In this document: positions 5,431 through 6,980 of the stretch, in pieces | Layout: the number at the start of each line of letters is the position of its first letter | How positions within the stretch are numbered: the first letter of the stretch is position 1 | NCBI GenBank assembly: GCA_023920165.1 | Contig: CP089279.1 | Span: forward strand, 62,001-126,000 | DNA: 64,000 nucleotides | From: Curvularia clavata | Lineage: Eukaryota | Reading direction: 5' to 3' | Notes under the pieces: generated by a model | What the model saw: the letters and a program-made list of their open reading frames with translations, nothing else | Database searches by the model: none | Told to the model about the DNA's origin: nothing | Program-made: the position numbers and the translations under genes

Positions 5431-5480
5431 TAGGCTGGTAAATAACGTGTCGGATCAGTAAGCTGGGCACCCCACCCCAC

Positions 5481-6922
5481 CACCCGGTGGAAGAAAATCT
5501 TGGGACTCACAAATGGCTTGGCGCACCCCAACAAAGTGGACAGCCCACCAAAACAACATGAAATCTATCATTTTGAATGGTAGAAATTAGATTTGAAGCT
5601 CTAAATATATTGCGGATAGCTAAATATATTGATTTTCTAGTGTTGCAGGCTTATTCTGCTGCCCAAATCTCACCACCCAGTCATTTGGCCGTCCATCTCA
5701 ACGCAGTCTCGCAGTCTCCGAGGCATGCTATCTACCTGTTCATTTATATAGTGTTGTGAGACTTTCTGCCACCCTTCAACAGCTAATTTTCTTGTCTCAA
5801 ACTCGTCCCAATGTGGAAATCTAGCCATAAATTGCTTTGGTGGGCGCCAGCAGTTCTCAATAGGGGCTAGATCTGGTAACCCAGGGCAGTTAAAATATGA
5901 CTCCAGACCATTCTCTCTTTTCCAAATTTGAACGATATTCCCACGAGTAGAACGTCTACCGCCGTGTCCACTATCGTTGTCTTCTTCAAGAACGAAGTTA
6001 GGGTTCTGCTGGAGCCAAGGCTTCACGATAGGCTCAAGAATCTGGTCTCGGTAAACCTGGTGGCTCATCTTACCATTAGATGACTTTGACTGGTAGAAAT
6101 GGAGATTGGACTTGAAGTTATATCCGACTGCAGCCCAGGAGTGCTGCCTTTGGTGTTGCTTTTCTTCTATTCGGTCAAGAAGATGGTGAATACAATCTGA
6201 GCAGTATCGCTCTCCAGGCTTCCGGATAATCTGAATCTTCTCTTCTGAACTAACAGACCAATGTACTTCGTCAGAGAAGCGTACGCGGCGCCAGTCTTCT
6301 GGTTTTGGGTACTTTTGCACCATGACTTGTGCCCATTCCTTCCTCTTCTTTGCAAGTCGTCTAGACACCCACCCCTTTGAGCAGGCTATACACTTGTGAT
6401 AATCCATAGAACCCAAGTGAATCTTCAAAGTACGACCACAAACACCAAGATCTAGCTCCTCTGAGAGCTGTTCCCAAGTCAGAGCTCTTGCAGAGTACCC
6501 CTGGTCTTGAAGAAATCGGTCACATCTTTCCAAATCTTTCGCCGAGAGTGCTAATGGTCTACCACGATTTTCAGATAATAGTGGATTATGTTGATGTCTT
6601 CTATCAGCTGCAATACTAATTTGCTGTAGTAGAGCCCAGCCGCGACTTTTAGAGAAGCCATAGAAGTCGAATAAGTCTGTATGATGGAAAAAAATTCCTT
6701 TTGCTTTTATGTATTCTGCAGCCCCCCTTACGCGCGCTCTTCTAGGAGTTTCTGCCTGGGGAAATCTTGTTTGGGACATGCTGTCTCACTTGCAATTGGA
6801 ATTTTTTAAAAACATTATGTGGTGGTGGAAATATAGAGCTGTGAAGTGGGTGGGTTTTGCAGTCGTCATCGACTTTGGTGGGGGGGCCTGTGCTGAGTCC
6901 CAAGATTTTCTTCCACCGGGTG
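5481..6922 (-). mobile_element. Tc1/IS630-like DNA transposon, 1442 bp, perfect 29-bp TIRs, apparent 5-bp TSD CCCAC
   Basis: TIR CACCCGGTGGAAGAAAATCTTGGGACTCA at 5481-5509 and inverted at 6894-6922. CCCAC at 5476-5480 and 6923-6927. Confidence 0.9.
5670..6779 (-). CDS. Tc1-like DDE transposase (DD40E), uninterrupted ORF
   Basis: 369 aa with VRFSDE, LEEDND and PDLAPIENCW. 40 residues lie between the second D and the E. Confidence 0.9.
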   Translation of the reverse strand: MSQTRFPQAETPRRARVRGAAEYIKAKGIFFHHTDLFDFYGFSKSRGWALLQQISIAADRRHQHNPLLSENRGRPLALSAKDLERCDRFLQDQGYSARALTWEQLSEELDLGVCGRTLKIHLGSMDYHKCIACSKGWVSRRLAKKRKEWAQVMVQKYPKPEDWRRVRFSDEVHWSVSSEEKIQIIRKPGERYCSDCIHHLLDRIEEKQHQRQHSWAAVGYNFKSNLHFYQSKSSNGKMSHQVYRDQILEPIVKPWLQQNPNFVLEEDNDSGHGGRRSTRGNIVQIWKRENGLESYFNCPGLPDLAPIENCWRPPKQFMARFPHWDEFETRKLAVEGWQKVSQHYINEQVDSMPRRLRDCVEMDGQMTGW

Positions 6923-6980
6923 CCCACCTAACCCAACTCTCTACACAACCACCACAATGCCGCGACAACAACGCTCTATA

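Follow-up and report, generated by a model that had tools for sequence, protein, structure and literature searches.

We found that a 1442-bp transposon of the fungus Curvularia clavata has the anatomy and the fold of a Tc1 element and is flanked by a 5-bp duplication rather than by TA. IS630-Tc1-mariner (ITm) elements are recognised, in the textbook view, by insertion at TA with a 2-bp stagger. Across the element's relatives, the length of the target site duplication (TSD) is specific to the family (5 bp in families A, B, and C; 4 bp in D and E), and the targets are GC-rich and symmetric. Very probably, the focal element is a member of a clade of Tc1-like (IS630-Tc1-mariner) cut-and-paste transposons of ascomycetes, a clade that descended from TA-duplicating ancestors and lost the specificity for TA. 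The unusual TSD extends past this one element, to five families (A-E) in the genome and to relatives in metagenomes.

The focal element and its empty sites

We analysed a window of 64,000 nucleotides. The focal element occupies positions 5481-6922 of the window and has perfect 29-bp terminal inverted repeats (TIRs) as well as a single ORF (Table 1). TA is present at neither flank; CCCAC lies directly outside both TIRs. The first-pass annotation had pointed out these features, which we confirmed from the sequence, and had proposed a Tc1-related lineage with altered target cleavage. That proposal is supported by the Tc1 fold of the protein and by the recurrence of the 5-bp TSD in independent insertions and genomes.

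Table 1. Features of the focal element and its surroundings (window positions)
Feature	Position	Strand	Basis
Relic left end, same family, 93% identity over 43 nt	5387..5430	+	repeat comparison
Host sequence that the insertion interrupts: left end, truncated, of a pogo/Fot1-type (DDE_1) element	5445..6980 (approximate bounds)	+	
Left TSD copy, CCCAC	5476..5480	.	sequence, empty-site fit
Left TIR, 29 nt, CAC start	5481..5509	+	100% complementary to right TIR
Transposase ORF P0001, 369 aa, open	5670..6779	-	HTH_Tnp_Tc3_2 and DDE_3 (both below Pfam cut-off), Tc1/mariner fold
Catalytic E308 codon (DD40E)	5856..5858	-	alignment
Catalytic D267 codon	5979..5981	-	alignment
H213 codon, second clade-diagnostic His	6141..6143	-	residue comparison across tree rows and homologues
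H173 codon, clade-diagnostic His, D1+3	6261..6263	-	residue comparison across tree rows and homologues
Catalytic D170 codon	6270..6272	-	aligned to SB100X SDETK motif
Right TIR, 29 nt, GTG end	6894..6922	-	100% complementary to left TIR
Right TSD copy, CCCAC	6923..6927	.	sequence, empty-site fit
Empty site homologous to the focal locus, other host-element copy (L191), single CCCAC	42809..42866	-	

The focal copy differs from the family consensus at 9 conserved positions (4 of them transition-type changes), so this copy may be inactive. Its dinucleotide ratios lack a strong RIP signal. In runs X3 and X4, the focal insertion has six differing positions and one inserted base, with one difference within the H173 codon, as expected for a fixed, drifting copy. 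A nearby stretch of 179 bp (5246-5424), which contains most of the relic TIR, is missing in these two runs and covered in run X5. Also in the window are a 475-aa ORF at 3187-4614, about 870 bp from the element, which is a putative MFS-type membrane transporter (judged by eye from the translation), and, at 8060-8506, the start of another Tc1-like transposase. This one is apparently degraded and resembles the CAGTGGGG-ended TA family (it is similar to L135).

The insertion lies in a repeat that, where intact, continues into a PF03184 (pogo/Fot1-type) transposase, and other copies of the repeat provide empty sites. The right flank of the element has 31 other matches; we examined 19 of these loci, and 17 were homologous. 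From one such end near position 42860, which does read as quoted, the first-pass annotation had argued that a gapless fit requires a duplication of 5 bp. This holds generally: exactly 5 was the best length at 17/17 homologous empty sites, with 21-27 matches out of 30, versus at most 17 for any other length from 0 to 9. Contigs of runs X4 and X6 also join position 5475 to 6923 (which skips 1447 = 1442 + 5 nucleotides), but the shorter side of the join spans just 23 letters. These joins probably come from paralogues, and we did not count them as an orthologous empty allele.

Duplications and targets across the clade

We then surveyed the C. clavata genome (32 Mb in 8 contigs). The focal family (family A) comprises one full copy and two MITEs of 253 and 259 bp, with the TSDs CCCTG and CCCAG. 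It also has an interrupted copy (C3), a solo end (C2), and the relic end beside the focal element. (L169, at C3:1464619-1468230, is a diverged family A copy with about 2 kb of other DNA inside, and the last bases of its right TIR are missing.) Families B to E were defined from further proteins in the same genome, at about 25% identity. Families B (4 copies) and C (5 copies) start with CTC and have a 5-bp TSD in 8/9 cases and a 4-bp TSD in L012. Families D and E (2 copies each) start with CAC, and all four copies have 4-bp TSDs, including both copies of family E. Within families A-D, 11 of 14 elements have an exact 5-bp TSD, versus 0.15 expected when flanks were swapped between elements; the other 3 have exact 4-bp TSDs. 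Further TIR searches for families B-E found no paired copies beyond the known ones among the loci examined.

Two pairs of dispersed copies, L012/L013 and L164/L165, are each 100% identical, which indicates recent movement of clade members. L012 (C2:2035-3497) has the same 4-mer as its TSD as the family D copy L021 has, and its identical partner L013 has a 5-bp TSD.

As controls, we used nine other Tc1-like elements (seven from this genome and two from metagenomes), whose ends we placed by hand from repeat output. All nine are flanked by TA. Similarly, in the control CAGTGGGG-ended family, 10 of 11 copies are flanked by TA. The eleventh, L162 (C8, near 416000), has a 5-bp direct repeat that ends in TA, which could be chance or a rare long-stagger event. 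Because L012 and L162 each depart from their family's rule, TSD lengths are not absolute.

For metagenomes, we scanned with a profile of alignment A1 and obtained at least 181 relatives, of which we took 80; an inverted repeat was found in 48. By eye, we set aside 11 of these (2 at a contig edge and 9 whose repeats do not mark the ends of an element); removing 3 duplicates and the 4 loci that lack a C[AT][CA] terminus then left 30 to score. Among these 30 relatives, 18 have an exact 5-bp TSD versus 0.41 expected, and lengths of 4, 6, 8, or 9 score 0. None of the 30 has TA on both sides, but the terminus rule was set after the data had been seen, and two of the four loci that it removed (L127 and L131) are TA-flanked. 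Another caveat is that many of the loci come from a few sample series, so the hosts are not independent; the insertion sites do differ. Among the 12 elements without an exact 5-bp TSD, one has a single mismatch, three have two mismatches, one has a 7-bp TSD (L083), and two have lost their termini. Several of the remaining misses are on contigs barely longer than the element, which look like collapsed assemblies. No relative of P0001 was found in plasmids, and no relative of A1 or L141 in viral contigs.

Combining the 14 elements from the genome with the 30 from metagenomes, 0/44 scored elements are flanked by TA and 29 have exact 5-bp TSDs. These counts bear on a simpler explanation. The focal insertion sits within a CCCCA tandem, and family A has only three complete insertions in the genome, so CCCAC might be a product of slippage or chance, in a family that truly duplicates TA or nothing. 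This was named in the first-pass annotation as a way in which its reading could fail, and the collected copies and their tabulated flanks refute it. The explanation is excluded because the other copies (the two MITEs) bear different 5-mers. The 29 exact TSDs across families (versus fewer than one expected), the absence of TA-flanked copies, and the fit of every homologous empty site also contradict it, and we give it practically no chance.

The 29 five-base TSDs have a GC content of 72%, versus 49% in the flanks. The first base is C or G in 24 of them, the second is a pyrimidine in 26, the fourth is a purine in 21, and the fifth is C or G in 27. In other words, the target consensus is S-Y-N-R-S, which is GC-rich and two-fold symmetric. 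TA occurs inside 4/29 of these TSDs. In the 18 metagenome elements (loci L056-L119), TA is also found at +2/+3 past the TSD, on the right in 9/18 and on the left in 3/18; this is possibly a residual flanking preference or RIP.

What could produce these duplications? The likeliest source is the element's own transposase, which would act as a dimer and cut the target with a stagger of 5 nt. A transposase dimer would bind both TIRs and join the 3' ends to target phosphates separated by 5 nt (by 4 in families D and E) instead of 2, and gap filling by repair after strand joining would then create the TSD. We infer the stagger and the gap filling from the genomic TSDs and from established DDE chemistry. 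A symmetric target suggests two equivalent subunits that read half-sites. Alternatively, the stagger might be short and without TA specificity, and the 4-5-bp repeat might form when the host later repairs the site or when the second strand transfer is offset. TSD lengths do vary slightly (4 bp in L012, 7 bp in L083, and 5 bp in L162), as this would allow. But within a single host genome, the length is specific to the family (five in A, B, and C; four in D and E), and the preferred bases mirror each other around the middle of the 5-mer, as a fixed stagger predicts. We consider an origin in repair or in offset transfer improbable.

The transposase and its descent from TA users

P0001 has only faint matches in Pfam (DDE_3, E = 0.0021, and HTH_Tnp_Tc3_2, E = 0.0024). 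With the A1 profile, the sole match among PDB sequences is SB100X (E = 3.4e-18). The predicted structure (mean pLDDT 76.8) has Mos1 and SB100X as its best structural matches in Foldseek. When folds were compared (scores were computed for Foldseek-ranked chains only), SB100X had Z = 20.8 and an rmsd of 3.3 over 200 aligned residues, Mos1/SETMAR had Z = 18.6-19.4, and integrases formed the next tier, at 10.0 or below. Relatives in the ESM Atlas carry automatic DDE_3/Tc3_2 names only. At E up to 1e-30, a search with the A1 profile gave 459 clusters (50% identity), which need not all belong to the clade. The closest named homologues are in ascomycetes, among them Clathrospora, Pyrenophora, Macroventuria, Colletotrichum, Botrytis, and Orbilia. 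In Pyrenophora tritici-repentis, a multi-copy relative from the P0013 cluster carries the label "HMG box protein." Proteins of L195 and L196, which are on contigs of bacterial MAGs, share 60-66% identity with L134's fungal DDE_3 protein; these are probably fungal contamination of the bins.

The fold and the SB100X match agree with the earlier description of a Tc1/IS630-like protein. The catalytic triad of P0001 is D170, D267, and E308, which does give the DD40E spacing that had been called unusual. As a mark of the family, we rejected DD40E: the spacing between the second Asp and the Glu is 40 in just 11 of 111 scorable close homologues, 37-38 in 87 of the 111, and 34 in families B and C, and it ranges from 34 to 44 across the clade. 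Similarly, the CAC ends stood for the focal element and were rejected as a defining trait. Ends in the clade are CAC, CAA, or CTC, and the 18 metagenome elements with 5-bp TSDs include 10 with CAA, 5 with CAC, and 3 with CTC.

Two histidines follow the clade more closely. H173 and H213 are present in 19/20 non-TA rows of our tree and in 0/17 of the TA, untyped, or outgroup rows. Among 120 close homologues, H173 is present in 114 and H213 in 116. H173 aligns with the lysine of the SDETK motif of SB100X, which has methionine at the position of H213, and in TA relatives the residue that corresponds to H173 is variable (S, I, or G). The available text of PMC5481204 equates this lysine with W159 of Mos1, a residue that holds the bent target, and reports that Mos1 uses W159, R186, F187, K190, and V214 for insertion at TA. 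We speculate that H173 (which stands where Mos1 has W159 and Tc1 has the lysine, residues that hold the bent target) and H213 may belong to the change that replaced TA recognition, to which we give somewhat less than an even chance. The correlation cannot show cause because both histidines mark one evolutionary event. Another clade-wide residue, D269, is common to SB100X as well. We dropped the idea of a zinc site from the two histidines and a CxxC motif, as the cysteines are absent in families B-E.

The main tree has 37 catalytic regions (240 columns, LG+G4). L199 and the 5-bp loci that are split over frames (L096, L108, and L117) were omitted. All 20 typed non-TA rows are on one branch (support 99/92). 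This branch is nested, with two TA-flanked groups, in a branch with support 99/99, and further TA families and bacterial IS630-like rows are outside. A 22-row tree with a mixture model kept the non-TA branch (11 rows, support 96). Both trees place a non-TA clade among TA-duplicating Tc1-like rows; a caveat is that the rows do not include named references (Tc1, impala, or Ant1) and that branches are long. On the evidence of these trees, the non-TA elements are one clade derived from TA users. The trees do not settle the branching order of the 5-bp and 4-bp groups. Between their first two catalytic residues (Asp and Asp), the 4-bp families (L020, L021, L164, and L165) carry a long basic insertion, as does the TA family L166-L173; despite this, the two separate in the tree.

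The TIR core of the 5-bp clade is in register with that of the TA-flanked CAGTGGGG family, which suggests that the donor ends are handled as before and that the change would be on the target side. In the TA-flanked sister elements L127 and L131, the core is 3 nt further from the end. We considered whether a 5-bp element is simply a TA element whose ends have become 3 nt shorter; this fits only L127 and L131, and we rejected it as a general rule because the CAGTGGGG family shares the register of the 5-bp clade.

Comparison with known elements

Like Tc1-family elements such as SB100X and impala, members of the clade are 1.3-1.6 kb long, with short TIRs, one ORF, HTH and DDE_3 domains, a DDE triad, and the same fold. 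Unlike theirs, the clade's TSDs are 5 or 4 bp, GC-rich, and not fixed in sequence. SB100X also differs in having Lys and Met where the clade has His (D1+3) and His. In the available text of PMC5481204, insertion by ITm transposases is described as occurring "with a 2 bp stagger, strictly at TA." Mariner Mos1 (5HOO) has the same fold over the DNA-binding and catalytic domains; it cuts TA with a 2-bp stagger and has W159, whereas here the stagger is probably 5 and His is at that position. Impala is reported as DD37E in the part of PMC7325037 at hand, and 37 is the commonest spacing in the clade (we compared with impala by its description only). The spacing of 40 in P0001 does not match Tc1 sensu stricto (DD34E), and 34 is found only in families B and C. 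By its DDE transposase with an N-terminal HTH, its short TIRs flanking one ORF in 1442 bp (about 1.3 kb is usual for the group), and its placement among TA-duplicating Tc1-like transposases, the element falls in the Tc1 branch of ITm. The TA duplication with its 2-bp stagger is missing despite Tc1-like working, so we file the element as a variant lineage of Tc1 transposons and not as an ordinary member.

Zator (TWA), TBE, and Tc4 are other ITm exceptions to TA. In fungi, Fot elements with TAA and TAAA TSDs were presented as new exceptions to the 2-bp TA (PMC7386202, in part). Fot and Fot-like pogo elements are thus fungal ITm elements that depart from the rule, but they are DDD (DDE_1) with fixed, AT-rich TSDs that begin with TA, whereas the clade has DDE_3 and variable GC-rich 4-5-mers. 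Dici of Diutina catenulata is a recently described fungal ITm family; unlike the clade, it is DD34E (about 475 aa, three CDSs) with an invariable TA TSD, according to the accessible part of PMC13469147. The hAT5, hAT6, and hAT7 sub-lineages (PMC12730594, in part) are a precedent for a change of TSD length inside a superfamily, but hAT is another superfamily and had no fixed TA target to lose.

The closest resemblance in TSDs is to Transib and RAG. In 2005, Transib was called the only eukaryotic superfamily with 5-bp TSDs, and the same source, as far as available, describes GC-rich symmetric 5-bp TSDs, ends starting with C, an A-run inside the TIR, and occasional 4-bp TSDs in RAG (PMC1131882). 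Could the element be of Transib/CMC type, or could such a transposase move its ends in trans, with the Tc1-like ORF as a passenger? We think this very improbable. First, the catalytic layout is unrelated: the second Asp and the Glu are 34-44 residues apart here versus 206-214 in Transib. Second, 13 of the 18 metagenome elements begin with CAA or CTC, and TIRs of the clade lack the Transib heptamer and nonamer 23 bp apart. (The A-run starts at about position 13; the heptamer is not conserved in the clade beyond CAC, and CAC itself is not conserved there.) Third, the type of TSD tracks the tree of the Tc1-like ORF, the elements carry little besides this ORF, and their TIR core lines up with that of a Tc1-like family flanked by TA. 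Among the matches listed in the Foldseek and fold comparisons, the top ones were Tc1/mariner and none was a Transib or RAG structure, which does not exclude a RAG1-core-like fold. Searching the C. clavata genome with a RAG1 profile (PF12940) gave no match, and the control also matched nowhere. The likeness to Transib is convergence and not kinship.

We found no such family in the accessible parts of PMC2836289, PMC4522978, PMC5751038, PMC4210507, PMC2817418, PMC13728883, PMC3538342, PMC6941823, or PMC10085805. Other candidates were TremH of Paracoccidioides (TSD undefined), which we ruled out as DD35D, and the SDHC3 insertions of Z. tritici, which have 9-bp TSDs. Two MITE families of M. graminicola are described, in the text available, as having 5-6-bp TSDs, and we made no link to the clade. 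Overall, among the papers listed by our searches of the open literature, none describes fungal elements of Tc1-like type whose TSDs are GC-rich and 4-5 bp long; Repbase and subscription journals were outside our scope. That Repbase already annotates such families is possible, though less likely than not.

We lean slightly towards the view that this is an undescribed ascomycete-wide ITm family. A single ancestral change of the surface that binds the target would have swapped strict TA for staggered cutting, by 5 nt and later by 4 nt, at symmetric sites rich in GC, giving Transib/RAG-like target signatures by convergence while the Tc1 fold was kept. If so, these would be the first Tc1-type group that has no TA to anchor it, and copies active until recently would be available for assay. 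Annotation based on TSDs would mislabel the clade's elements and MITEs as Transib or leave them unclassified, and the protein is already labelled "HMG box protein" in some databases. The requirement for TA constrains vectors such as Sleeping Beauty, and the clade offers natural variants for studying how gene-delivery enzymes choose and cut their targets. With the same fold, probable 5- and 4-bp staggers, and TA-using sister groups, the residues that set the target sequence and the stagger can be tested, and compact transposases with a bias for GC-rich targets could result.
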